From an uncultured Alphaproteobacteria bacterium (GTDB lineage: Bacteria > Pseudomonadota > Alphaproteobacteria > RF32 > CAG-239): a DNA stretch of 64,000 nt. Of this stretch, positions 245-32,925 are shown piece after piece. Each line of letters starts with the position of its first letter. Positions within the stretch are counted from its first letter, which is position 1. The stretch is from assembly GCA_934273635.1 (NCBI GenBank), contig CAKQSV010000008.1:30-64029 (forward strand), written 5' to 3'. The position numbers and the translations under genes were made by a program. The notes beneath the pieces were generated by a model that was not told the DNA's origin, searched no databases, and saw nothing but the letters and a program-made list of their open reading frames with translations.

Positions 245-318
245 TGGAGCGGGCAACGGGAATCGAACCCGCATTATAAGCTTGGGAAGCTCACGTTCTA
301 CCATTGAACTATGCCCGC
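245..318 (-). tRNA. tRNA-Gly (anticodon CCC), 74 nt including the encoded CCA
   Basis: The reverse complement GCGGGCATAGTTCAATGGTAGAACGTGAGCTTCCCAAGCTTATAATGCGGGTTCGATTCCCGTTGCCCGCTCCA folds as a cloverleaf: 7-bp acceptor stem, D arm GTTC/GAAC, anticodon loop TTCCCAA with U33 and A37, T-loop TTCGATT. Confidence 0.85.
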
Positions 319-1533: not shown

Positions 1534-4230
1534 ATGAGTAAATGGGTATATACATTCGGAAACGGAGCTGCTGAAGGCGACGCTTCTATGAGAAATCTCC
1601 TTGGCGGTAAGGGCGCTAACTTGGCCGAAATGAATAAGGTCGGTTTGCCTGTGCCTCCTGGATTTACTGTAACGACTGAAGTTTGCACATACTACTACGC
1701 AAACAACAAAACTTATCCTGCTGATCTGAAAGATCAAGTTCGCGCTGCGGTTGCCGGTGTTGAAAAAATTATGGGCAAAAAGTTTGCTGATGCCGAAAAT
1801 CCGCTGTTGTTCTCTGTTCGTTCAGGTGCTCGCGTTTCTATGCCGGGTATGATGGATACGGTATTGAACTTGGGTTTGAATGACGAAACCGTTAAGGCTT
1901 TGGCTAAAGCTTCTGGCTCTGAGAGATTTGCTTATGACTCTTACCGTCGTTTCTTGCAGATGTTCTCTGACGTGGTTTTGGGTGCTGATTTGGACTTGTA
2001 CGAAGAAGCTCTTGAGAATATGAAAAAGTCTAAAGGCTACAAATCTGATACTGATTTGACTGCTGAAGACCTCAAAGAATTGGTTAAAGAATACAAAGAA
2101 ATCGGTCAAAAATTGGGTAAAGTTGTTCCTCAGGATCCTTGGGATCAGTTGTGGGCAGGTATTGGCGCCGTATTCGGTTCTTGGATGGTTGACCGCGCTA
2201 TCACCTATCGTAAATTGAACAACATCCCCGGTGACTGGGGTACAGCTGTTAACGTTCAGACCATGGTATTCGGTAACGCCGGCGATGACTGCGCTACCGG
2301 TGTTTGTTTCTCTCGCGACCCTGCTACCGGTGAGAACGTTTACTACGGTGAATATTTGGTTAATGCTCAAGGTGAAGACGTTGTTGCCGGTATTCGTACA
2401 CCGCAACCGATGGCTTCTAAGGGCGACGGCACTTCTTTGGAAGAAAAATGGCCTCATCTGTATAAAGAATTGGTAGACGTTCGTAACAACCTCGAACAGC
2501 ACTACAAAGATATGCAGGATATGGAATTCACCATTGAACACGGCAAATTGTGGATGTTGCAATGCCGTAACGGTAAGCGTACGGCACAGGCTGCTGTTCG
2601 TATGGCTGTTGAGATGGTTGAAGAAGGCTTGCTGAATAAAGAAGAAGCTATTATGCGCGTTGGCGCTGAGCAACTCGACCAGTTGTTGCACCCAATGTTG
2701 GATCCGAAGGCTAAAAAAGTTGTTATCGCAACTGGTTTGCCGGCTTCTCCTGGTGCTGCTGTCGGTCGTGCCGTATTTAATGCCGAAGACGCTGAATCTT
2801 GGGCTGCTAAAGGTGAGAAAGTTATCTTGATCCGTAACGAAACCTCTCCGGAAGATATTGGCGGTATGCACGCTTCTCAGGGTGTGATTACTGCTCGCGG
2901 TGGTATGACCTCTCACGCTGCTGTTGTGGCTCGTGGTATGGGTACCCCTTGCGTATCCGGTTCTCATGACATTGTCATCAGCTACAAAGACAAAACCATG
3001 ACCACCAAGTCCGGCGCCGTTATTAAAGAAGGCGACTGGTTGTCTTTGGACGGTGGTAAAGGTCAAATTTTGGAAGGCGCTGTTCCGACCGTTAAGGCTG
3101 ACACCAACACCGGTAACTTTGGTAAATTGATGAGCTGGGTTGATGAAATCCGCACTTTGGAAGTTCGTGCCAACGCCGAGACTCCGAAAGACGCTCAACA
3201 AGCTCGTGACTTTGGCGCACAGGGTATTGGTTTGGCTCGTACCGAACACATGTTCTTTGACGCAGAGCGTATTCCTGATATGCGCGCTATGATTTTGGCT
3301 AATGACGAAGCCGGCCGTCGTGCTGCTTTGGCTCGTTTGTTGCCGTATCAAAAGCAAGACTTCAAAGATTTGTTCAAAATTATGGACGGTCTGCCGGTTG
3401 TTATCCGTTTGTTGGATCCGCCGCTCCACGAATTTTTGCCTCATACCGATGCAGAAATGCAGGAATTGGCTGACAAAATGGGTATGACTTTGCAACAGGT
3501 TAAGACTCGCGCAGATTCTTTGCACGAAGCTAACCCGATGTTGGGTCACCGTGGTTGCCGTCTGCCGATTACATATCCTGAAATTTGCGAAATGCAGACT
3601 CGCGCTATTATTGAAGCTGCTATGGAATGCGCTGATGCCGGAATCCATGTTGTTCCGGAAATCGAAGTTCCGTTGACAGGTTCTAAGAAAGAGTTGGATA
3701 TTGTTAAAGACATTATCGACACCACAGCCGAGAAGATTTTTGCTGAGAAAGGCAAAAAGATTGAATATCAGGTTGGTTCTATGATTGAGTTGCCGCGTGC
3801 GGCTCTGAAAGCTGACGAACTGGCTAAATCTGCTGAATTCTTCGGTTTCGGTACCAACGATTTGACACAAACCACCTTGGGTATGAGCCGTGATGATACC
3901 GGCGCTATCCTTGATGAATATCGCGCTCGCGGTGTTTATGTGGCTGATCCGTTTGCTTCTATCGATGTTGAAGGTGTTGGTATGTTGGTTAAGATGGCTT
4001 GCCACAAAGCTCGTTGCTCTAACCCGAACATTTGGTTAGGTGTATGCGGTGAGCACGGTGGTGATCCGGCATCTATCGACTTCTTCCAGACCTGCGGTAT
4101 GAACTATGTTTCATGCTCTCCGTTCCGTGTTCCTGTTGCTCGTTTGGCCGCTGCACAAGCTGCAGTTCGTCACAAAAACGATGCTCAAGAAAATGCAGGG
4201 AGTGGGTGTTGTTGCAAGAAGTCTGCCTAA
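1534..4230 (+). CDS. ppdK: Pyruvate, phosphate dikinase
   Basis: 898 aa with PEP-utilising-enzyme motifs (GGMTSHAAVVARGMGTPCV, LGHRGCRL, NDLTQ). RBS GGAGC lies upstream of the ATG. Confidence 0.95.
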   Translation: MSKWVYTFGNGAAEGDASMRNLLGGKGANLAEMNKVGLPVPPGFTVTTEVCTYYYANNKTYPADLKDQVRAAVAGVEKIMGKKFADAENPLLFSVRSGARVSMPGMMDTVLNLGLNDETVKALAKASGSERFAYDSYRRFLQMFSDVVLGADLDLYEEALENMKKSKGYKSDTDLTAEDLKELVKEYKEIGQKLGKVVPQDPWDQLWAGIGAVFGSWMVDRAITYRKLNNIPGDWGTAVNVQTMVFGNAGDDCATGVCFSRDPATGENVYYGEYLVNAQGEDVVAGIRTPQPMASKGDGTSLEEKWPHLYKELVDVRNNLEQHYKDMQDMEFTIEHGKLWMLQCRNGKRTAQAAVRMAVEMVEEGLLNKEEAIMRVGAEQLDQLLHPMLDPKAKKVVIATGLPASPGAAVGRAVFNAEDAESWAAKGEKVILIRNETSPEDIGGMHASQGVITARGGMTSHAAVVARGMGTPCVSGSHDIVISYKDKTMTTKSGAVIKEGDWLSLDGGKGQILEGAVPTVKADTNTGNFGKLMSWVDEIRTLEVRANAETPKDAQQARDFGAQGIGLARTEHMFFDAERIPDMRAMILANDEAGRRAALARLLPYQKQDFKDLFKIMDGLPVVIRLLDPPLHEFLPHTDAEMQELADKMGMTLQQVKTRADSLHEANPMLGHRGCRLPITYPEICEMQTRAIIEAAMECADAGIHVVPEIEVPLTGSKKELDIVKDIIDTTAEKIFAEKGKKIEYQVGSMIELPRAALKADELAKSAEFFGFGTNDLTQTTLGMSRDDTGAILDEYRARGVYVADPFASIDVEGVGMLVKMACHKARCSNPNIWLGVCGEHGGDPASIDFFQTCGMNYVSCSPFRVPVARLAAAQAAVRHKNDAQENAGSGCCCKKSA

Positions 4231-4240
4231 TTAAGTAGGT

Positions 4241-4420
4241 AGACGCGCTAAAGGGCTGTCATACTGGTTATTTTTTCGCTTATGTACTAGTTGTACACTG
4301 CGCTCAAAAATAACTTCGTAGCACAGCCCTTTTTCGCGTCTATATGGTGGAAGTTGGTGTTGTGTGGTGCGCTTAAAATTCCCGTCGCAGCATGGGGTTT
4401 TATTGTGTCTACAATAAAGT
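4241..4420. repeat. Tandem repeat unit 1 (~170-180 bp) containing a nested palindromic element (agacgcg...gggctgt-[conserved core with tgtacac]-acagccc...cgcgtct)
   Basis: Inverted arms 4253-4259/4324-4330 and 4241-4247/4335-4341. The unit repeats at 4421-4595 with ~90% identity. Confidence 0.8.
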
Positions 4421-4595
4421 AAGGGCTGTCATACCGGTTATTTTTTTTCGCTTATGTACTAGTTGTACACTGCGCTCAAAAATAACTTCGTAGCACAGCC
4501 TTTTTTTGCGTCTATATGGCGGAAGTTGGTGTTGTGTGGTGCGCTTGAAATTTCCGTCGCAGCACGGGGGTATTGTGTCTGTGGGGAAGATTAAA
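4421..4595. repeat. Tandem repeat unit 2 (copy of 4241-4420)
   Basis: gggctgt at 4423, core ...ttgtacactgcgctcaaaaataacttcgtagcacagcc..., then the shared non-palindromic tail tatatggcggaagttggtgttgtgtggtgcgctt. Confidence 0.8.
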
Positions 4596-4658
4596 AAAAG
4601 TTTGAAATTTTTGTTGTGGTGTGTGACACTTATTTAGCGGTTGAGGAAAGTGGCGGCA

Positions 4659-5342
4659 ATGAAAATAGAAGAGCAGATATTCAAACGAATCCAAATTAAT
4701 TTTAGGGTATTGTCTGATTTTGGTTTTGAACAGTCAGATGGCAAGTGGATTTATGTTCAAGATTTTTTGGATGGGGCTTTTCGCGCCGTTATCGAAATTG
4801 ATGACAACGGGCTTATTACCGGTAATGTTTATGAGACGGACAGCAACGAAATATATATTCCTTTGCGCGTGGAGAGTATGGATAGCGGGTTTGTCGGCAA
4901 AGTGCGTGGTGAATATGTTCAAATTTTGGAAAATATAAAATCTCGTTGTTGTGTGGCAAATTATTTTATTTATCCGCAAGCCAATCGCTTGGCTCAGGCT
5001 ATTTATCAAAAATATGGAGACAAGCCGACGTTTCCGTGGGAGAAACTGTCAGGTTTCGGCGTTTTCAGAAATCCGGATAATCGTAAGTGGTATGCGGTTG
5101 TTATGAATCTTAACCGGCAAAAATTTGATAAAGGTCGTTCGGGCGAGTTTGAAGCGGTCAATATCAAACTAAATGAGGCCAAAATTTCTGAATTGCTCGG
5201 TCAAAAAGGTTTTTATCCGGCGTATCATATGAATAAAAAGAACTGGATAACTGTTTCTTTGGATGACACTTTGCAAGATGATGTGATATTTTCTTTAATT
5301 GAGGAAAGTCATCGATTGACCGAAAAAAGAAAAAATAATTAA
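4659..5342 (+). CDS. Two-domain protein: N-terminal domain of unknown function fused to a C-terminal MmcQ/YjbR-family domain
   Basis: C-terminal HMNKKNWITVSLDDTLQDDVIFSLIEESH matches the YjbR motif HLNKAHWSTVYLDGSLPDSQIYYLVDASY. Start placed at the ATG with GAGGAAAG 12 nt upstream; a TTG at 4641 is the alternative. Confidence 0.6.
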   Translation: MKIEEQIFKRIQINFRVLSDFGFEQSDGKWIYVQDFLDGAFRAVIEIDDNGLITGNVYETDSNEIYIPLRVESMDSGFVGKVRGEYVQILENIKSRCCVANYFIYPQANRLAQAIYQKYGDKPTFPWEKLSGFGVFRNPDNRKWYAVVMNLNRQKFDKGRSGEFEAVNIKLNEAKISELLGQKGFYPAYHMNKKNWITVSLDDTLQDDVIFSLIEESHRLTEKRKNN

Positions 5343-5421
5343 GTTGTTAAATGAAATTTGTTTTACAACAATTATATAGTGATAGCGATGACGATGTTTT
5401 AATTTGTTATGGAGGTATAAA

Positions 5422-5772
5422 ATGAGAAAAATGTTTTTGACTTTATTGGCGGTGTTTGCCGGTGTAAATGTTGCTAACGCTCAAGTAACAGGCGGTTTGG
5501 GGGCTGAGCCGACGGTGGTTATAACCGTGAAGGAGGCTTTGTCTCTTAATGATGACTCCAAGGTGGTTTTGCAAGGCAATATCGTTAACAATCTTGGCGA
5601 TGAAAAATATATTTTCAAAGACGCCACCGGAGAAGTTGTGGTTGAGATTGATGATGAAGATTGGATGGGACGGAAAGTCACGGCTGAAAATGTTGTTATC
5701 ATTAGTGGCGAAGTTGATAAAGATCACAATGAACCGACCAAAATTGATGTTGACACTTTTACCATAAAATAA
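5422..5772 (+). CDS. Periplasmic BOF (YgiW/YdeI, DUF388) OB-fold protein
   Basis: Signal peptide MRKMFLTLLAVFAGVNVANA; OB-fold pattern ...VVLQGNIV...DATGEVVVEIDDEDW...VIISGEVDKD...IDV. Strong RBS GGAGG 8 nt upstream. Confidence 0.65.
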   Translation: MRKMFLTLLAVFAGVNVANAQVTGGLGAEPTVVITVKEALSLNDDSKVVLQGNIVNNLGDEKYIFKDATGEVVVEIDDEDWMGRKVTAENVVIISGEVDKDHNEPTKIDVDTFTIK

Positions 5773-5814
5773 TCGTTAGCTTAAAAATGTTTTTATGGTG
5801 AGATAGAAAAAATA

Positions 5815-5842
5815 TTGACAAAAAAGAGTAAGTCAATATACT
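5815..5842 (+). promoter_or_regulatory. Sigma70-like promoter (TTGACA, 16-17 nt spacer, TATACT) for the 5891-6823 gene pair
   Basis: TTGACA at 5815-5820 and TATACT at 5837-5842. Confidence 0.45.
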
Positions 5843-5890
5843 TATTTTTCGTGTTAAATATTATTTTTTTAATTATTAAATATCAATGCA

Positions 5891-6331
5891 ATGAAAATTA
5901 AGCAATTATTGGAGCTTTATGCGTCAACATTTGAGGTAGACGCGGTTCTGAAACATTATGCGGTGGATTTTTTTGTTGACTCCGACGGTCCTGAATTATG
6001 GAGTGATTTCTCCAAAGATGTCAGAGCCAAACTGAAGGAGCAGCGCAAGATTATCATGCAAGAGTTGGTGCGTCAGTTTCCACTTTCGGCGATTGATTTG
6101 CGCGAGAACGGCGGCTTTGCCAAACCGCAGGATTTTTTTGCTGAGATGCAGAAGTATCCGGATTTGGTCAAGGCTTGCAACGGCGGGTTGAAATCTCTTA
6201 TCGGAGATTTTGAACGTGCCCTGCACACCAAGGTCAGAAGCCAATTCTTCGGGTATTCCGATGAGGCGGTTTATGGCTGTTTGGAGAGTATGGTTAGTTA
6301 TCTTAGTGAGTGGCAAAACAAAAATTTTTAA
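5891..6331 (+). CDS. Hypothetical protein (146 aa), no recognisable domain
   Basis: ORF with own promoter; stop at 6331 is 4 nt before the next ATG, suggesting translational coupling. Confidence 0.55.
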   Translation: MKIKQLLELYASTFEVDAVLKHYAVDFFVDSDGPELWSDFSKDVRAKLKEQRKIIMQELVRQFPLSAIDLRENGGFAKPQDFFAEMQKYPDLVKACNGGLKSLIGDFERALHTKVRSQFFGYSDEAVYGCLESMVSYLSEWQNKNF

Positions 6332-6334
6332 GTT

Positions 6335-6823
6335 ATGACGTTTACGGAAATTAAGGCAGAATATGCTAGATTGAGACAGGACAACAGACGAATCAAAACG
6401 GTTAATGAGCTGTTGCCAGTATGTGACTTTAAAGTGGTAAAGGCGACAGATGAGCTTCAATCGTCTAATGTTCAGGCGCAAAAACAGTTGATAACACTGG
6501 CGCAACGCAAGTTCCCGACAGTTTCAAACGAGGTTAAGAATCTCTCAAAAGACGAGTTTGACGCTTGGGTAAGGTTATTAAGATGTTATCCTGCGTTTCT
6601 CAAGGGCAAAGAGAAAGCCGTTATCGGCGTTTTCAGCACATTTGTTCCTGAAAAATCCGAGGACTTGGCTTATCTGAGCGCAATGTTGCCGATTGTGCAG
6701 AATCCGAGAATCGAAAAAGCGATTGAGGCGGAAAAATGCTGTACGCTTGAGTTTTGGAGAGCGCGGGTTGCGCAGGTGCAAAACAGTTGCCGTTTGGAAA
6801 AATCGGCGGCTGAAGAGGCTTAG
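6335..6823 (+). CDS. Hypothetical protein (162 aa), no recognisable domain; coupled to the upstream ORF
   Basis: ORF immediately follows the 5891-6331 stop. Confidence 0.55.
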   Translation: MTFTEIKAEYARLRQDNRRIKTVNELLPVCDFKVVKATDELQSSNVQAQKQLITLAQRKFPTVSNEVKNLSKDEFDAWVRLLRCYPAFLKGKEKAVIGVFSTFVPEKSEDLAYLSAMLPIVQNPRIEKAIEAEKCCTLEFWRARVAQVQNSCRLEKSAAEEA

Positions 6824-6889
6824 TTTTTCTATCTTATTTTAAAACGGAGTGAAAGGTGAGGAACTTTTCGCTCTGTTTTTTTATAAATA

Positions 6890-6918
6890 TTGACAAAAAT
6901 GTGTTTGCAGTGTATAAA
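6890..6918 (+). promoter_or_regulatory. Sigma70-like promoter (TTGACA, 17 nt spacer, TATAAA) for the 6956 gene
   Basis: TTGACA at 6890-6895 and TATAAA at 6913-6918. Confidence 0.45.
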
Positions 6919-6955
6919 CGGCTCAACAATTAATTATTAAAGAGATTATTTTTTT

Positions 6956-7645
6956 ATGTCGGTGCCGTTTGTGGTATTGACAGTGTTGTGTAACTTAAAA
7001 AATTTATTTTTTATGAACGAGACAGCTATTATCATGGTTGGCGATAAGAAGAGTTCTTGTCATTCGCCTTTTGCCGTATTTGAGACCCTTAAAGGTTGGA
7101 CAACGACGCGTGCTACCAAGGTTATTCCAGATGGAGCCTATTTTGCGGTATTAATCCGTCAGGATGGGGGCAATGTTGATGTTCACCCCAACTTGTTTGT
7201 GCAGGGGTATCGTCCGCACAGATCTTTTGCTAAGCTGTATGTTGACAAACGACGTTATGGTCGTTTTGTGAAGGCCGAGGAAAAGAAGTATCCTGATGAT
7301 GTGGTTTTTGCTGCGGTGCAGCTTTATCAGGTTGTTGGTGATCGTGAAGTGCGCTTGGTGCTAAAAGATGGTGAGAGCCACGACCTTGCTAAGGTGACTG
7401 AACTGTCCGATCAGATTTGTCAGGAGCTTAAGTTGGAGCTTTTGGGCAAATTGCAGTTGGTGGAGTATTATTGCCCTGTTTCGTCCGGATATTTTCTGGG
7501 AGGCTACCATTACAAGGTTTGGGCTGCGGTTGTCGGTGAGCGTAATGGTCTGAAATTGGACAAGAAAGCGCTGATATTCGACTATGACACAGGTATCCCA
7601 GGCGTGGTAGAATATGACGACCGTCACTTTGAGACGATTGGGTAA
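6956..7645 (+). CDS. Hypothetical protein (229 aa; alternative start at 7013), no recognisable domain
   Basis: Long ORF with its own promoter and a strong downstream terminator. Confidence 0.55.
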   Translation: MSVPFVVLTVLCNLKNLFFMNETAIIMVGDKKSSCHSPFAVFETLKGWTTTRATKVIPDGAYFAVLIRQDGGNVDVHPNLFVQGYRPHRSFAKLYVDKRRYGRFVKAEEKKYPDDVVFAAVQLYQVVGDREVRLVLKDGESHDLAKVTELSDQICQELKLELLGKLQLVEYYCPVSSGYFLGGYHYKVWAAVVGERNGLKLDKKALIFDYDTGIPGVVEYDDRHFETIG

Positions 7646-7659
7646 CACAATGACTTAGA

Positions 7660-7722
7660 AAGCGGTGTTCGGCAGACTCTTTTTTTGATGAAAAGAGACT
7701 CGCCCAACACCGCTTTTTTTTG
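7660..7722 (+). terminator. Long imperfect hairpin followed by T8 (rho-independent terminator)
   Basis: agcggtgttcggcagactct ... agagactcgcccaacaccgct, then tttttttt. Confidence 0.7.
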
Positions 7723-7932
7723 TGCGCGAATCGCAAATTTTAAAACATTAAATTTGATATAGACCTTTTTTATATGTTTTTTTGTTTATAAAACAAAAAA
7801 TAATGTAGCATTTTGTAATTTTTTAGAGAAATTATCATTTTTGTTATTGAAAATTATTTTTTTATTGCTTAAGTTAGTGCTTGTATTAGTTGTTTAGCAA
7901 TTAAAAAAGTAAACCCATATGGAGAAAATAAA

Positions 7933-8394
7933 ATGAAAAAACTTTTAAGTTTATTCGCAGTTGTTGTTTTGTCTGGTTGTTCTTTGTTCGGTGCCAATGG
8001 CGGTTTGTTCGGCGGTAGCGAATGCGAATCTAAATTAGCTCGTGATTTTATGGCTAATGCTGAAGACAAAATTTACTTTGCTTTCGATAGCTCTGCTATC
8101 AACGATAATTCAGCTGAAATCCTGAACACTCAGGTTAAATGGTTGAAGAAACACGAGAAAGTAAACGTAATCGTTCAAGGTTACTGCGATGAACGTGGTA
8201 CAAGAGAATACAACTTGGCATTAGGTGCTCGTCGTGCAAACTCTGTTAAACAGTACTTGGCATCTCAGGGCATTGCTGCTGACAGAATCTCTACGATTTC
8301 TTACGGTAAAGAAAGACCGGCTGTTTTGGGTAACAACGAAGCAGCTTGGGCTCAGAACCGTCGTGCAGTTACCGTTGTTAAAGCCGGTAACTAA
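7933..8394 (+). CDS. pal: Peptidoglycan-associated lipoprotein (OmpA-like domain)
   Basis: Lipobox LSGC; OmpA C-terminal-like motifs (GYCDERGTREYNLALGARRANSV...). Confidence 0.9.
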   Translation: MKKLLSLFAVVVLSGCSLFGANGGLFGGSECESKLARDFMANAEDKIYFAFDSSAINDNSAEILNTQVKWLKKHEKVNVIVQGYCDERGTREYNLALGARRANSVKQYLASQGIAADRISTISYGKERPAVLGNNEAAWAQNRRAVTVVKAGN

Positions 8395-15322: not shown

Positions 15323-16684
15323 ATGCATGTGAGATTACCCAGTAAAATGGACAACCTCGTGCGGTATCTGAAACTTAAGATACTGCCGAAAAAGTTGTTC
15401 TTTAGAACAATGTTGCTGATTTTTGTGCCGCTGATTGTGGTGCAGGTGGTTTCGATTGTGGCCTTTTTTGACGGCACTTGGGGGCGTTTGGGCTCTCGTT
15501 TGGCCAACAACCTGACCTCGGATATGGCCATGGTGATGGATATGATTAATAAATCACCCGACCATTTGCAGGACATTAAACGCATTTCCAAAGACAATTT
15601 GGATATGGAAGTGACGGTCTATTTGAGCAAAGACAAGCACAAGGCTGTCAACAACGTGATTAAGAAAAACAATAATGAATTGGTGACCGGCTTTTTGGAG
15701 AAAAACCTCAAACGCAAGTTTCCGGCTGATTTGACGAGCGTTTATTGGAACCGTCACAGTTCGACGTTGACGGTGTTTATTGACACGCCGGAGCGGTTGT
15801 TTAAGTTTGTGACCTCGTCCAAAAATATTTTCTCAACCTCGATTTTCGGATTTGTGGCGTGGATGGTCGGCACCTCAATTTTGCTGTTTTTGGTGGCGGT
15901 GCTGTTTTTGCGGATTCAGGTGCGCTCGATTGCCGATTTGGCCAAGGCTGCCGAAGACTTCGGTAAAGGTATCGACAATAAAGACTTTAAGCCATACGGC
16001 TCGTCCGAGGTTAGAACCGCGGCGTTGGCGTTTATTAAAATGAAGGAGCGTATTCAGCGCCAAATTTCTGAAAGAACGCAAATGCTGGCGGGTGTGTCTC
16101 ATGACCTGCGCACGCCGTTGACCCGTATGAAGTTGCAGGCGACCATGCTCAAAGGTCAGGACAAGGAAGATATGTTGCAGGATATTTCCGAAATGGAAAA
16201 AATGCTGGAAGGTTATCTGTCTTTTGTGAGCGGTGAAGGCGGAGAAAAGTCGTCGTTTATTGATATGAACGAGCTGATTTTGAGCGTGCTGAACAAATAT
16301 CGCACCAAAGACGCGTTTATTCGCTACAAAACCAACGATCAGGTCAGCGCAATTCAGGGACGCGAACAAGCTCTTAAGCGCGCGATTACCAATGTGATTT
16401 CCAATGCTTTGAAATATGGTAAGACCGTGGCGGTGGATTTGGAAAGCAACGACCGCAAGTTGGAAATTACTATCGACGACGATGGTCCGGGAATCCCCGC
16501 AGATAAGAGGGAAGAAGTTTTTAAGGCGTTTTATCGTCTTGAAGAGTCTCGCAACAAAGAAACAGGAGGCATCGGTCTCGGTTTGGCTATCACTAAAGAT
16601 GTTATTACATCTCATGGTGGTAAGATTGAGCTGGCTGACAGTCCTTTAGGAGGTTTGAGAGTTCTCATTTCTATTCCCTTATAG
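15323..16684 (+). CDS. Sensor histidine kinase, EnvZ-like (2 TM, periplasmic domain, HisKA, HATPase)
   Basis: H-box MLAGVSHDLRTPLTRMKL is nearly identical to EnvZ; N-box NALKYG; G-box GLGLAI. No response regulator adjacent. Confidence 0.8.
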   Translation: MHVRLPSKMDNLVRYLKLKILPKKLFFRTMLLIFVPLIVVQVVSIVAFFDGTWGRLGSRLANNLTSDMAMVMDMINKSPDHLQDIKRISKDNLDMEVTVYLSKDKHKAVNNVIKKNNNELVTGFLEKNLKRKFPADLTSVYWNRHSSTLTVFIDTPERLFKFVTSSKNIFSTSIFGFVAWMVGTSILLFLVAVLFLRIQVRSIADLAKAAEDFGKGIDNKDFKPYGSSEVRTAALAFIKMKERIQRQISERTQMLAGVSHDLRTPLTRMKLQATMLKGQDKEDMLQDISEMEKMLEGYLSFVSGEGGEKSSFIDMNELILSVLNKYRTKDAFIRYKTNDQVSAIQGREQALKRAITNVISNALKYGKTVAVDLESNDRKLEITIDDDGPGIPADKREEVFKAFYRLEESRNKETGGIGLGLAITKDVITSHGGKIELADSPLGGLRVLISIPL

Positions 16685-16849
16685 CTCGCAAATTCGTAAA
16701 TTTATGGCTTGGATTAAATAGAATTTGCGCCATATTCTTAAAAGCGGACAGAGGTTGTTTTCTGTTCGCTTTTTTGTTAAAGTGATGTTAATACATCATA
16801 CATTATAATCGGTGTATTGTGTTTTTTGGTGCTCGTTGTGAGGGATAAT

Positions 16850-18901
16850 ATGTTTGGTTTTAAGAAAAATACAGAGAAAAAAATTGAACCCGAATTTACG
16901 GACAATTATGAGCAAAATGGCAATGAGCCAAAAGATTTGGCCGATATTTTGGGCGCGCAGGAAAATGACACGAACATTACCGCCGGCGTTGACGCTATTC
17001 TGGACGAAAGCGGCGATATTTCGGAAGAGCAGGCGGGGATTAATCACAATACGGTTGATTTTGGCGCTATTCATCCTGATGACGAGCCGTTGGATTTGGA
17101 CTCATACGATGAGCCGATTATGCAAAATTCTTATGAAGAACCGTTAGCGGCGGCATCCCTTGAGGCACCGGAAGTTGCGCCGTTTGACGAGCCTGCGGCA
17201 GAGCCCAAGCCGGTGTTTGAGGCGGAACCAGAGCCGGTTGTTGACGAGCCTGTGACAGAGCCTGAGCCGGTGTTTGAGGCAGAACCAGAGCCGGTTGTTG
17301 ACGAACCGGCGGCAGAACCTGAGCCGGTTGTTGAGGCACAGAATAATGCGGCGGCGGTCATGCCTGCCGAGCCCGAAAACGCGGTGCCGGATATTGATAA
17401 CATAACCGCGGCGCCTGCCGATGACGAGATTGAAGATATTTTGTCCGACGAGGTCGGCGATTTGAGCCTTGATGATATTCTGGGGGCGGAAGAAGACGCC
17501 TCTCTGGATGATATTTTACAAGAAGAAACAAATACGCCTGAAGACAATCCGATAGCGGATTTGCAAGATTTGGCACCGGCGAACCCTGTGCCGGAATCCG
17601 AGCCGGAGGCGGAGATTGACAGGCCTGAAGATGTGATTTTGGAAGAACCGGAGCCGGCATTTTCCGAAGAGCCGCAAGCGGAGGTTATGCCCGAGCCTGA
17701 ACAAGAAATTGCGGAGCCAGAAGATTTTGTGATGGCTGAACCCGAACCGGTGTTTGAGGAAGATAGTCCAACTGAACCGATTGAGGCGCAGAAGTTTGGG
17801 GTTGAGCCTGAGCTTGAGGCTAAGGATGTTGCACCTGAGCCGGTCGCAGTGCCGGAATTTGAGCCTGAGCCGGTTGTGGCGCCCGTGGTCGATGAGGTTG
17901 TGACGGAGACAGCAGAAGATGTTGTGGCACCGGAAGTGCCGGAAAGCGGTTTTATTCCCGCGGCGCCGGTGACGTTTGTGAACGTGGCTGATGAGACCTC
18001 GGCAGAGGCTAAGCAGGTTGAGCCTAAGGCTGATTTGTGGACGGTTGAGGATATGGGTATCCTGTCCGCCTCGCCAAAGGTGATTAATGACAATAGTGGC
18101 TGTGTTACTTGGTGCGGTGATAAATATCAGAGCGATTTGAAAATTGCGGTTGATAGTTTTCAGGCGCTTAAAAATTGGTCTTTGATGATTATTAACGAAT
18201 TTTCGGTGCCTCTGGTTGATGTTGGCTCGGAGGTTGTGATTGAAAAAGCAGACAATGTGGTGCGTTATGCCTCTTTGGTGCGCAACGGTGTGGAAAAATT
18301 GCAGATTTTTAATCAGCGTTCGTATAAATTTGTGACGCCGCAAAATGAATTTTTTACGGTGCAGGGTAATGTTATTTGCGGGCGGATTGATAATTCTTTT
18401 GCCTTGAATATTCGAGATTACGTTACCGTGGCTTTGGAAGACAAGGTCAACAAATATATTCGTTTTGAACGTCCGATGTCCGGCTTTATTAACGGCGCCA
18501 ACGGCGTCAGAGTGTTTTTTGCCAATGCCAAAGGTGTGGCGCTGACAGTGGCCGGTGTTATTCCGGAGCCCGAAGTTTTTGAGTATCAGCCGCCGCTTAA
18601 AGAGTTTGACACCAAGGCTTGTTATGTGTTTGACGAGAGCAGCGAAGACCAAGAATTTACGGCGGATAATCGCAAAAAGATTTTGGTGGTGAACGTTGGG
18701 GCGTCATTATATGGTTGGAACGTTCATTTTGACAATGAGGCTTATATGAGTTTGCGTGACGCTCTTGAATATCAATCTCGTTACAAGCAATTACCCTCAT
18801 CCAACGGCGAGTTGCTTCACGGTGCTCGCAAGCTTAAGTTCTATGGCATAGAGCAGTTAAAAACGAGGGTGCGGGTTGTGTATTACTCCTACGGCTCTTA
18901 A
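16850..18901 (+). CDS. Large acidic Pro/Glu/Val-repeat protein with a ~300-aa C-terminal globular domain of unknown function
   Basis: Repeats EPEPVVDEPAAEPEPVFEAE...; no signal peptide; RBS GAGGGA before ATG 16850. Confidence 0.6.
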   Translation: MFGFKKNTEKKIEPEFTDNYEQNGNEPKDLADILGAQENDTNITAGVDAILDESGDISEEQAGINHNTVDFGAIHPDDEPLDLDSYDEPIMQNSYEEPLAAASLEAPEVAPFDEPAAEPKPVFEAEPEPVVDEPVTEPEPVFEAEPEPVVDEPAAEPEPVVEAQNNAAAVMPAEPENAVPDIDNITAAPADDEIEDILSDEVGDLSLDDILGAEEDASLDDILQEETNTPEDNPIADLQDLAPANPVPESEPEAEIDRPEDVILEEPEPAFSEEPQAEVMPEPEQEIAEPEDFVMAEPEPVFEEDSPTEPIEAQKFGVEPELEAKDVAPEPVAVPEFEPEPVVAPVVDEVVTETAEDVVAPEVPESGFIPAAPVTFVNVADETSAEAKQVEPKADLWTVEDMGILSASPKVINDNSGCVTWCGDKYQSDLKIAVDSFQALKNWSLMIINEFSVPLVDVGSEVVIEKADNVVRYASLVRNGVEKLQIFNQRSYKFVTPQNEFFTVQGNVICGRIDNSFALNIRDYVTVALEDKVNKYIRFERPMSGFINGANGVRVFFANAKGVALTVAGVIPEPEVFEYQPPLKEFDTKACYVFDESSEDQEFTADNRKKILVVNVGASLYGWNVHFDNEAYMSLRDALEYQSRYKQLPSSNGELLHGARKLKFYGIEQLKTRVRVVYYSYGS

Positions 18902-31755: not shown

Positions 31756-32925
31756 TTAAGCGCGGCTGTTACGCTTTTTGAGTTGTAACGCGCGCAACTG
31801 AGCCTCTTTGACATCGGCCAAGGTTTTTTCAGATTTGGCAACGGTGCGGCGGGCGGGCGCTTTTCGGGTGCCGTCATGGCGCGAGACCGAAACCGTAGCA
31901 TCGGCCAACTCCAGTTTGCCGCTGTTTAATTCTTTGACTGAAATTTCGCGAACGTTGAGTTTGGGGAGCTCGTGCGTGTCATTTTCGTTTTGTGCCAGTT
32001 GTTTGCGGCTGCTCAGCTCGTTGTAGATGCGGGTTGCGCTCTGAACTTTGATGATGTCTTCCAACAAGCTCTTTTCTTGTGTGTAACGGGTTTTTTGTCC
32101 CCACTTGGCGGTTTTAATGTCATAGGTTTTGAGGGCTACGGCATTTAAACCGGCTTTGGAGCCAACTCTTTGGTGCGCCTGCAGAAAAATTCCGGCAGTG
32201 CCGCGCGGACTTTGGTTGGCGCAAGAGATGACGGCCGCGGTATAAACAATGTTGTCAGGGTCGTTATAGTTGTCTAAATTAATTTCTGGAAACTTGCCGC
32301 TTTTGTGCAGGTTGTCAAAAATGTTTTTATAAACTTTGTCCCACATAAAACTGAACTGGCTGTTCTCAAACTCTTGAGCCTTGTCGCCGTAGCTGTATGT
32401 CTTCCACGCTTTCATGAAAGCAGATGAACGAACGCCGCTTCTTTTGATGGCCTGTTGCAAAGCCGGAAACTCTTTCTCGCAACTTTTGGCATAGTTTTGC
32501 ATGGTGCCGTTGAGGCTTATTTGGCACAAGCCCAAATAAGACGCGCTTGAAATCGGTTTGTTGCCGTTGGTAATGCAGGGGTTCATTCCCGATTCAAAAA
32601 CGTGGGCGACATCTTGCGCCTTAATGGTGCGCAGGTCAAGTTTGACACCTTTGTAGGTGACAGTTGCCAAGCGGTCAACTTGCACTTTGGCTTCGGCAAC
32701 GGTTTTCGCCTCGCTGAAATTGATGGTTTTGGCTTTGTCTGCGCCACGGGGAGCGGTTGCTTTTTTCACATAAGTGGTGCGGGCTTTAACGCCGTGGCTT
32801 TTATTGGCCGCCGCCGCGCCGCCGGCGGGGCTGTGCGCTCCGAACAATGTCATCATGCCGGCAAGTACCAGTGTTTTGCCTTTTGTCCACCAGCCTGATG
32901 ATTTTTCCTCTTTTTTATCAGACAT
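31756..32925 (-). CDS. Secreted lytic transglycosylase-like protein (SLT domain, VirB1-like motif) with a basic C-terminal tail
   Basis: Signal peptide; FESGMNPCITNGNKPISSASYLGLCQIS resembles the SLT catalytic block (E-S-x-x-N-P ... G-L-M-Q-I). Confidence 0.5.
   Translation of the reverse strand: MSDKKEEKSSGWWTKGKTLVLAGMMTLFGAHSPAGGAAAANKSHGVKARTTYVKKATAPRGADKAKTINFSEAKTVAEAKVQVDRLATVTYKGVKLDLRTIKAQDVAHVFESGMNPCITNGNKPISSASYLGLCQISLNGTMQNYAKSCEKEFPALQQAIKRSGVRSSAFMKAWKTYSYGDKAQEFENSQFSFMWDKVYKNIFDNLHKSGKFPEINLDNYNDPDNIVYTAAVISCANQSPRGTAGIFLQAHQRVGSKAGLNAVALKTYDIKTAKWGQKTRYTQEKSLLEDIIKVQSATRIYNELSSRKQLAQNENDTHELPKLNVREISVKELNSGKLELADATVSVSRHDGTRKAPARRTVAKSEKTLADVKEAQLRALQLKKRNSRA

Follow-up and report, generated by a model that had tools for sequence, protein, structure and literature searches.

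Probable native transcription units encoding lineage-restricted proteins in a variable slot upstream of pal in an uncultured gut alphaproteobacterium

Introduction

The gene order usual in alphaproteobacteria around pal is tolQRAB-pal-cpoB-tilS-ftsH. We examined a 64-kb stretch of DNA (64,000 nt of contig CAKQSV010000008.1, hereafter the window) from an uncultured gut alphaproteobacterium, in which the pal-cpoB-tilS-ftsH part of this order is present and pal is preceded by a block of three open reading frames (ORFs), orfA, orfB and orfC, whose proteins and families we call A, B and C. Among described systems, type II toxin-antitoxin (TA) modules and polymorphic-toxin immunity arrays have the same layout as orfA-orfB, with two small, near-abutting ORFs sharing one promoter (and one terminator). 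Immunity-gene arrays also resemble the B family in their tandem paralogues and hypervariable surface. PepSY-domain proteins are also among the closest known systems, represented by Bacillus subtilis YpmB (PDB 2gu3) and the C-terminal domain of B. megaterium YpeB (PDB 5boi).

An initial annotation of the window had described the block as a three-gene cluster inserted where tolB would normally precede pal, and had put it forward as a candidate accessory system, toxin/immunity or defence being given as examples. Comparison with related loci leads us to a different reading, in which the block probably comprises two independent, chromosomally native transcription units, located in a slot of variable content that separates ppdK from pal.

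Synteny and phyletic distribution

The window's proteins were mapped onto 30 related loci (designated by L numbers), whose metagenomic sources include humans (Hadza among them), pigs and deer. C lies immediately upstream of pal in 24/24 loci holding both genes, and the common order is ppdK-[variable]-C-pal-cpoB-tilS-ftsH. Beyond the species group of the window, C has diverged to 38–55% identity, compared with 80–95% for ppdK, 84–96% for pal and 83–91% for ftsH. Adjacency to pal in combination with such fast divergence marks C as a fast-evolving positional orthologue and not an insertion. The family appears to be clade-wide, vertically inherited and rapidly diverging, adjoining pal in nearly all relatives examined.

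Throughout the clade examined, pal is preceded by ppdK and C, not by tolB. The initial annotation was correct that tolB does not lie upstream of pal in the window, and no TolB-like protein was found among the window ORFs of at least 388 amino acids (aa); ten large ORFs were scanned with Pfam, and the one at 15323 (453 aa) has a histidine kinase as its match in L006. The missing tolB before pal is most likely the ancestral state of the whole clade, with no recent insertion.

The phyletic patterns of A, B and C are all different. C occurs without A and B at four loci away from pal and in L021, L024 and L025, where ppdK is directly followed by C with no B between them. Homologues of orfB (148–175 aa, 26–35% identity) precede C in L001/L017, L003, L004/L005, L012/L013 and L009, the last of which carries three tandem B paralogues, and B also occurs without A across further lineages. 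Only five clusters of orfA were recovered, all at least 84% identical; the gene was confined to the species group of the window and one sister species, as were the YjbR and BOF genes upstream of it (L006–L008, also L028 and L030). These patterns argue that A, B and C are not one unit and that C functions without A or B. orfA is probably a young, species-restricted gene, and B appears to be a semi-conserved, fast-evolving helical family of variable copy number, found alongside C in some of the clade with between 0 and 3 genes in tandem. The real variable slot would then be ppdK..C and not the site where tolB would sit.

Homologues of C without pal nearby were found in L011 (8001–8651), L014 (4495–5118), L015 (10001–10624) and L016 (10001–10621). 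They show 50–55% identity and have no pal, ppdK or B gene in their vicinity, with the L016 copy lying between mutL and recO/parC and flanked by other orphan genes. In a neighbour-joining tree without support values, the copies from L011, L014 and L016 nest inside the pal-linked C clade. Linkage between C and pal is thus not obligatory.

Composition and context are those of native genes. GC content (0.44–0.47), GC content at third codon positions (GC3, 0.48–0.52) and codon usage of orfA, orfB and orfC do not depart from the values seen across the other genes of the window. Neither direct repeats flanking the block nor, among the called neighbours, an integrase-like gene could be found, and the sole tRNA in the window (245–318) lies ~5.5 kb upstream. 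A scan of 2.9 million viral contigs for C and A returned no relative. The block is present in all same-species contigs, and only the wider ppdK..C slot varies between species. Judged by composition, by integrase, tRNA or repeats, and by presence/absence polymorphism, the block does not look like a mobile or accessory island; the three genes appear to be chromosomally native, neither foreign nor mobile.

An inserted three-gene cluster is therefore not borne out by the 24/24 adjacency of orfC to pal, the native composition and the three phyletic patterns. Conservation of the block in synteny, which the initial annotation had itself named as an observation that would speak against its proposal, holds for orfC (24/24) and in part for orfB (five further lineages at 26–35% identity), while orfA is species-restricted. 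The proposed accessory toxin/immunity or defence role fared no better, as there was no PADLOC match, no relative of A or C on viral contigs and no repeat. On the evidence of synteny, the inserted accessory, defence or toxin reading seems largely refuted.

Transcription units and coding status

The + strand of the window carries all three intact ORFs (Table 1) where they were first annotated, with the stop codon of orfA and the ATG of orfB 3 nt apart as originally read. Two units can be recognized, P1-orfA-orfB-T1 and P2-orfC-T2, and because each has its own promoter and terminator the block consists of two separate transcription units.

Table 1. Features of the block and of its immediate neighbours in the window.
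Feature	Position	Strand	Description
Promoter P1 for orfA-orfB	5815–5842	+	TTGACA, 16-nt spacer, TATACT; 11/12 consensus positions
orfA	5891–6331	+	146 aa, soluble, isoelectric point (pI) 5.4, no known domain
orfB	6335–6823	+	162 aa, all-alpha (predicted), soluble, pI 8.8
Terminator T1, 3' of orfB	6841–6882	+	17-bp stem, then U-run
Promoter P2 for orfC	6890–6918	+	TTGACA, 17-nt spacer, TATAAA
orfC	7013–7645	+	210 aa; public gene calls use ATG 6956 (6956–7645, 229 aa)
Terminator T2, between orfC and pal	7657–7722	+	Hairpin 7657–7718 + U-run
YjbR-domain protein and secreted BOF protein	4659–5772 (YjbR to 5342; BOF 5422–5772)	+	PF04237, 2e-16; PF04076, 2.4e-26
pal (OmpA-family lipoprotein)	7933–8394	+	Downstream neighbour; then cpoB, tilS, ftsH

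P1 ranks first among the sigma-70-like sites in a scan of 5.3 kb, and the hexamers of P2 can be read directly from the sequence (TTGACA at 6890–6895, TATAAA at 6913–6918). Both hexamer pairs are kept in the sister species L026, where the spacer and flanks differ, in agreement with the near-consensus sigma-70 promoters of the initial annotation. P1 and P2 each begin within an identical 13-mer, ATATTGACAAAAA, at 5812–5824 and 6887–6899, which occurs nowhere else in the window (0.26 matches expected by chance). A TTGACA(A/G)AAA box lies upstream of C in L001, L003, L004, L011, L012, L016, L021 and L024, and the layout of a hairpin followed by TTGACA ahead of C is repeated in L001, L003, L004, L012 and L016. 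In several species the motif (A)ATTATTAA is found again ahead of A and of C homologues. The leaders (5844–5890 and 6919–7012), along with their equivalents in L003, L011, L012 and L016, are very AT-rich. No Shine-Dalgarno sequence precedes orfA, orfB or orfC, in contrast to the neighbouring BOF and pal, which carry GGAG(G).

Both terminators are strongly predicted. The T1 hairpin (6841–6879) has a folding free energy of -23.3 kcal/mol (z -6.9) and is conserved in relatives. T2 reaches -36.3 kcal/mol (z -6.2), with 0/200 shuffles folding as well, and is likewise conserved in relatives, with substitutions that largely keep pairing, G-U pairs included. The strong hairpin after orfC had been recognized at the outset, but the second terminator after orfB had been missed. 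The spacer between orfC and pal measures 288 bp, and an Rfam search of positions 4200–8100 gave no match.

The start of orfC required revision. Most of 29 aligned orfC homologues begin at an internal methionine (MNETAII...) corresponding to nt 7013, and in L028/L029 a 1-nt indel between ATG 6956 and ATG 7013 puts 6956 out of frame. The true start is therefore ATG 7013. The sizes of 146 and 162 aa first given for orfA and orfB stand, but that of the third gene becomes 210 aa in place of 229 aa.

We estimated the ratio of nonsynonymous to synonymous substitution rates (dN/dS) by the Nei-Gojobori method for the window against four related contigs. Values were 0.05–0.34 for A, 0.33–0.80 for B and 0.15–0.21 for C, with ppdK, pal, cpoB and ftsH at 0.00–0.09 and tilS at 0.11–0.29 for comparison. 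Since the ratios are below 1, A, B and C are all coding and under purifying selection, B being the least constrained. Identical A, B and C proteins are present, under no name, on NCBI, ENA and Logan metagenome contigs as long as 360 kb. An antisense ORF (5996–6505, 169 aa, minus strand) under the variable region of B was rejected as a real gene on account of stop codons in relatives.

Protein families

The initial finding of no recognizable domain is confirmed, whether catalytic, nucleic-acid-binding, toxin-like or defence-related. Pfam, PADLOC and NCBIfam profile searches gave zero matches for orfA, orfB and orfC at E≤1, and a PHROGs search at the same threshold gave a single match, for orfC at E = 0.15, and none for orfA or orfB. 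Searches of PDB sequence profiles with the three family profiles returned nothing below E 0.1, a Pfam scan of every member of the C and B alignments showed no consistent weak family, and a viral structure comparison yielded no match. A literature search on the host clade found nothing concerning orfA, orfB or orfC. An N-terminal hydrophobic stretch or transmembrane-like segment is present in BOF, Pal and CpoB and in none of A, B and C. Because they have no signal peptide or transmembrane segment, A, B and C are predicted to be soluble and presumably cytoplasmic.

A hidden Markov model search with the C profile against 1.84 billion representative proteins recovered 29 sequences, one of them a spurious eukaryote-type repeat protein, and the family shares the invariant motif FVQGYRPH. 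orfC seems to define a small, undescribed family restricted to the clade. The AlphaFold model of orfC, built on a 29-sequence alignment, has a predicted local distance difference test (pLDDT) score of 86.8 and a predicted template modelling (pTM) score of 0.85. It shows an N-terminal beta-rich part holding the invariant FVQGYRPH strand, then a disordered loop, and a C-terminal half with the order beta-beta-alpha-beta(6). The protein is thus predicted to combine an N-terminal SH3/Tudor-like beta part with a C-terminal alpha+beta (PepSY/cystatin-like) part. As modelled, the fold is confident yet appears to have no known structural relative. Invariant polar residues are S14, E24, K36, Q64, R67, H69, R80, D95, D96, K184 and T193; orfC belongs to no recognizable catalytic family, though with these residues it may be an enzyme.

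In one family member, P0047, a phosphoribosyltransferase domain (PF00156, E 4e-25, residues 18–140) is followed by the C-terminal half of an orfC-like protein, and the two meet at an LLVKPE peptide that both share. It may be an assembly or gene-call chimera and not a real fusion.

The AlphaFold model of orfB, from a shallow alignment, is all-alpha with pLDDT 70.9 and pTM 0.46. Residues 10–60, which form an N-terminal helical hairpin in the model, are hypervariable. Variation within the species was examined against the same-species contig L006, whose ppdK and pal proteins are 100% identical to those of the window. Nucleotide differences cluster at 6200–6600 (the 3' end of orfA together with codons 1–60 of orfB) and at 7200–7400 (the middle of C). 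For B residues 10–60 synonymous divergence (dS) is 0.26 against a background of ~0.04, with dN/dS ~0.9; for C residues 63–130 dS is 0.34 and dN/dS 0.14. The divergent patches in B and C look like recombination imports of diverged alleles. The N-terminal region of B would be evolving close to neutrality, with C staying constrained.

orfA may be a very diverged duplicate of orfB. Residues 52–130 of A align colinearly with residues 48–120 of B through an FP...YP motif (hhalign, hmmsearch), and this similarity is marginal (E = 0.0065–0.0074; rank 12 among 2000 shuffled controls). Paralogy of A and B is suggestive, particularly as L009 has tandem B paralogues.

Neighbouring sequences

Other genes occupy the same region in related loci. 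A gene of ~245 aa, here called D, lies directly upstream of C in L009 (7271–7999), L018 (6129–6872), L019 (9241–9981), L020 (9211–9960) and L023 (7308–8054), with a D-to-C gap of 2–26 nt. D is colinear with the C-terminal half of C, a weak and non-significant similarity (hhalign E = 0.08). A second gene, E (212 aa), occurs in L020 and L023 and aligns with B at E = 0.009. A Pfam scan of D and E found no domain. We do not claim paralogy for A and B, D and C or E and B, as all these similarities are marginal against shuffles (E 0.007–0.08). Two more genes occur in the ppdK..C slot of L020, one for a putative papain-like cysteine peptidase of the DUF1796 family (PF08795, E 2e-15, 7549–8340) and one for a 485-aa multi-pass membrane protein, showing that different lineages gather unrelated genes there.

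Downstream of ppdK in the window (4240–4600) a ~172-bp unit is tandemly duplicated (4271–4406 and 4443–4578, 93% identical), each copy holding a GC-rich hairpin. BLAST against same-species contigs gave offset matches across 4240–4600, suggesting strain variation in copy number or arrangement.

On the other side of the block, pal and ~290 bp upstream of it (window 7646–8394) are almost identical to the sister species L026 (2248–2995). Between these two sequences pal has a dS of 0.03, and the last 200 nt of the intergenic region contain only 4 differences. The flanking genes are far more diverged (dS 0.56 for C, 0.73 for cpoB and 0.80 for tilS). Such a conserved pal segment could reflect either a recent recombination exchange or unusually strong constraint on the codons of pal and on its leader, for which Rfam has no matching family.

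Elsewhere in the window, two further large ORFs have no Pfam match at E≤1e-5, one at 16817–18901 (+; 694 aa, pI 4.1) and one at 31756–32925 (-; 389 aa, pI 9.8). Orphan genes would thus be common in this genome, which makes the flagged cluster less surprising.

Alternative explanations

We favour the reading of two native units, which we regard as probable. Unit 1, orfA-orfB, would encode two small soluble proteins, B being predicted all-alpha, and the N-terminal helical hairpin of B would be exchanged by recombination between strains. Unit 2 would consist of orfC alone, expressed from its own sigma-70 promoter, ended by an intrinsic terminator and yielding a soluble cytoplasmic protein of two parts. 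The proximity of orfC to pal would be a matter of historical synteny, neither an operon nor a functional link, because a strong terminator separates the two genes and C is also found far from pal within the clade.

Two proposals on function go further than this. The leading proposal, though a doubtful one, is that A, B and C are non-enzymatic binding or regulatory proteins, in which the variable hairpin of B serves as a specificity surface and C as a conserved binding module that acts without B. Considerably more speculative, and quite unlikely on present evidence, is that the helical A/B(/E) and C(/D) proteins make up an undescribed, clade-specific protein-protein recognition system, possibly an immunity-like or conflict module, in which a new alpha+beta fold (C) and a hypervariable, recombining hairpin partner (B) are anchored beside pal.

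Several observations weigh against two native units with no tie to pal or to conflict. Strict adjacency of C and pal at 24 loci could reflect a functional link despite the terminator, and the C copies away from pal could have arisen by relocation, paralogy or lateral transfer. The near-neutral hairpin of B, its recombination, its tandem paralogues and the strong promoters also fit a conflict (immunity-type) gene. The many invariant polar residues of C are compatible with an enzyme, the B model is of low confidence (pTM 0.46), and A-B paralogy is without statistical proof.

The alternative that retains most is that orfA-orfB is a toxin-antitoxin or toxin-immunity module, or that B-type genes are orphan immunity genes; one product would bind and neutralize the other, or a foreign toxin, and the hairpin of B would track a diversifying partner. 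Two small ORFs separated by 3 nt and served by a strong promoter and a terminator of their own could be read this way. So could the recombination of B residues 10–60 within the species at dN/dS ~0.9, the three tandem paralogues of L009, which recall immunity-gene arrays, and the species-specificity of orfA. However, searches of Pfam, NCBIfam and PADLOC matched no model of a toxin, an antitoxin or an immunity protein, no nearby protein carries a toxin or trafficking domain, composition is native and overall dN/dS is below 1. B keeps the same chromosomal site across lineages with 26–35% identity, and does so without A, which points to vertical descent and not mobility. We consider this explanation unlikely.

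A connection of orfC, with or without B, to the Tol-Pal/cell-division cluster would make it a clade-specific cytoplasmic accessory or regulator in the genomic place of tolB. This is very unlikely in our view. The strong conserved terminator and the 288-bp spacer separate C from pal, the protein has no signal peptide and so could not act in the periplasm as TolB does, and homologues from the same clade lie at unrelated sites in L011, L014, L015 and L016. What speaks for such a connection is that C sits right upstream of pal-cpoB-tilS-ftsH in 24/24 loci with both genes, over large divergence, and that neither this position nor the set of large ORFs in the window includes tolB.

Of these three rivals, a novel anti-phage defence system formed by A, B and C together is the least supported, and we regard it as highly improbable. 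A compact cluster of proteins from no known family, with strong promoters and a place in the locally variable ppdK-C region, might suggest defence, but PADLOC returned no match and no nuclease, ATPase, NTPase or other effector-type domain was detected. The three genes belong to two separate transcription units and each is distributed differently among relatives, C behaves as a core-like, syntenic gene and not a patchy one, and the neighbourhood contains no defence or mobile-element genes. That any of the ORFs arose by chance and is non-coding, as the missing Shine-Dalgarno sequences and database names might hint, has a practically negligible probability given dN/dS under 1 for all three genes and far under it for A and C, reading frames kept down to 26–40% identity, a confident C model and an antisense competitor broken in relatives.

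Reading the block as two native units removes a candidate novel defence or toxin system, and what remains are undescribed, lineage-restricted protein families at a locus that makes no long-standing question testable. With its confident model, conserved position and restriction to animal-gut metagenomes, orfC is a reasonable target for structural genomics or for work on genes specific to one lineage, here an uncultured one that is abundant in the human gut. The B family provides a small, naturally occurring case of a helical hairpin that is hypervariable and recombines.

Comparison with known systems

Set beside the described systems, the block shares layout or position with several of them. 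The PepSY domain has a fold in which a helix packs on a four-stranded antiparallel sheet; its Pfam model (PF03413) matches 0/29 members of the orfC family. Tudor/SH3-like beta-barrels, such as the TDRD3 Tudor domain (PDB 5yj8) and a PWWP domain (PDB 6kco), provide a generic small barrel at 9–16% identity, a likeness that implies no functional motif or family membership. Among the known defence systems of PADLOC-DB 2.0, A, B and C matched 0 families at E≤1. orfA-orfB differ from type II TA modules in that they are homologous to no family of toxins, antitoxins or immunity proteins and show no DNA-binding antitoxin fold such as RHH (ribbon-helix-helix), HTH (helix-turn-helix) or AbrB. They differ also in that no toxin gene is adjacent, the context is not mobile and the position of B is fixed across divergent lineages. 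From TolB, orfC is set apart by the absence of a signal peptide, a TolB N-terminal domain and a PD40 beta-propeller; what the two share is only their genomic position immediately upstream of pal.

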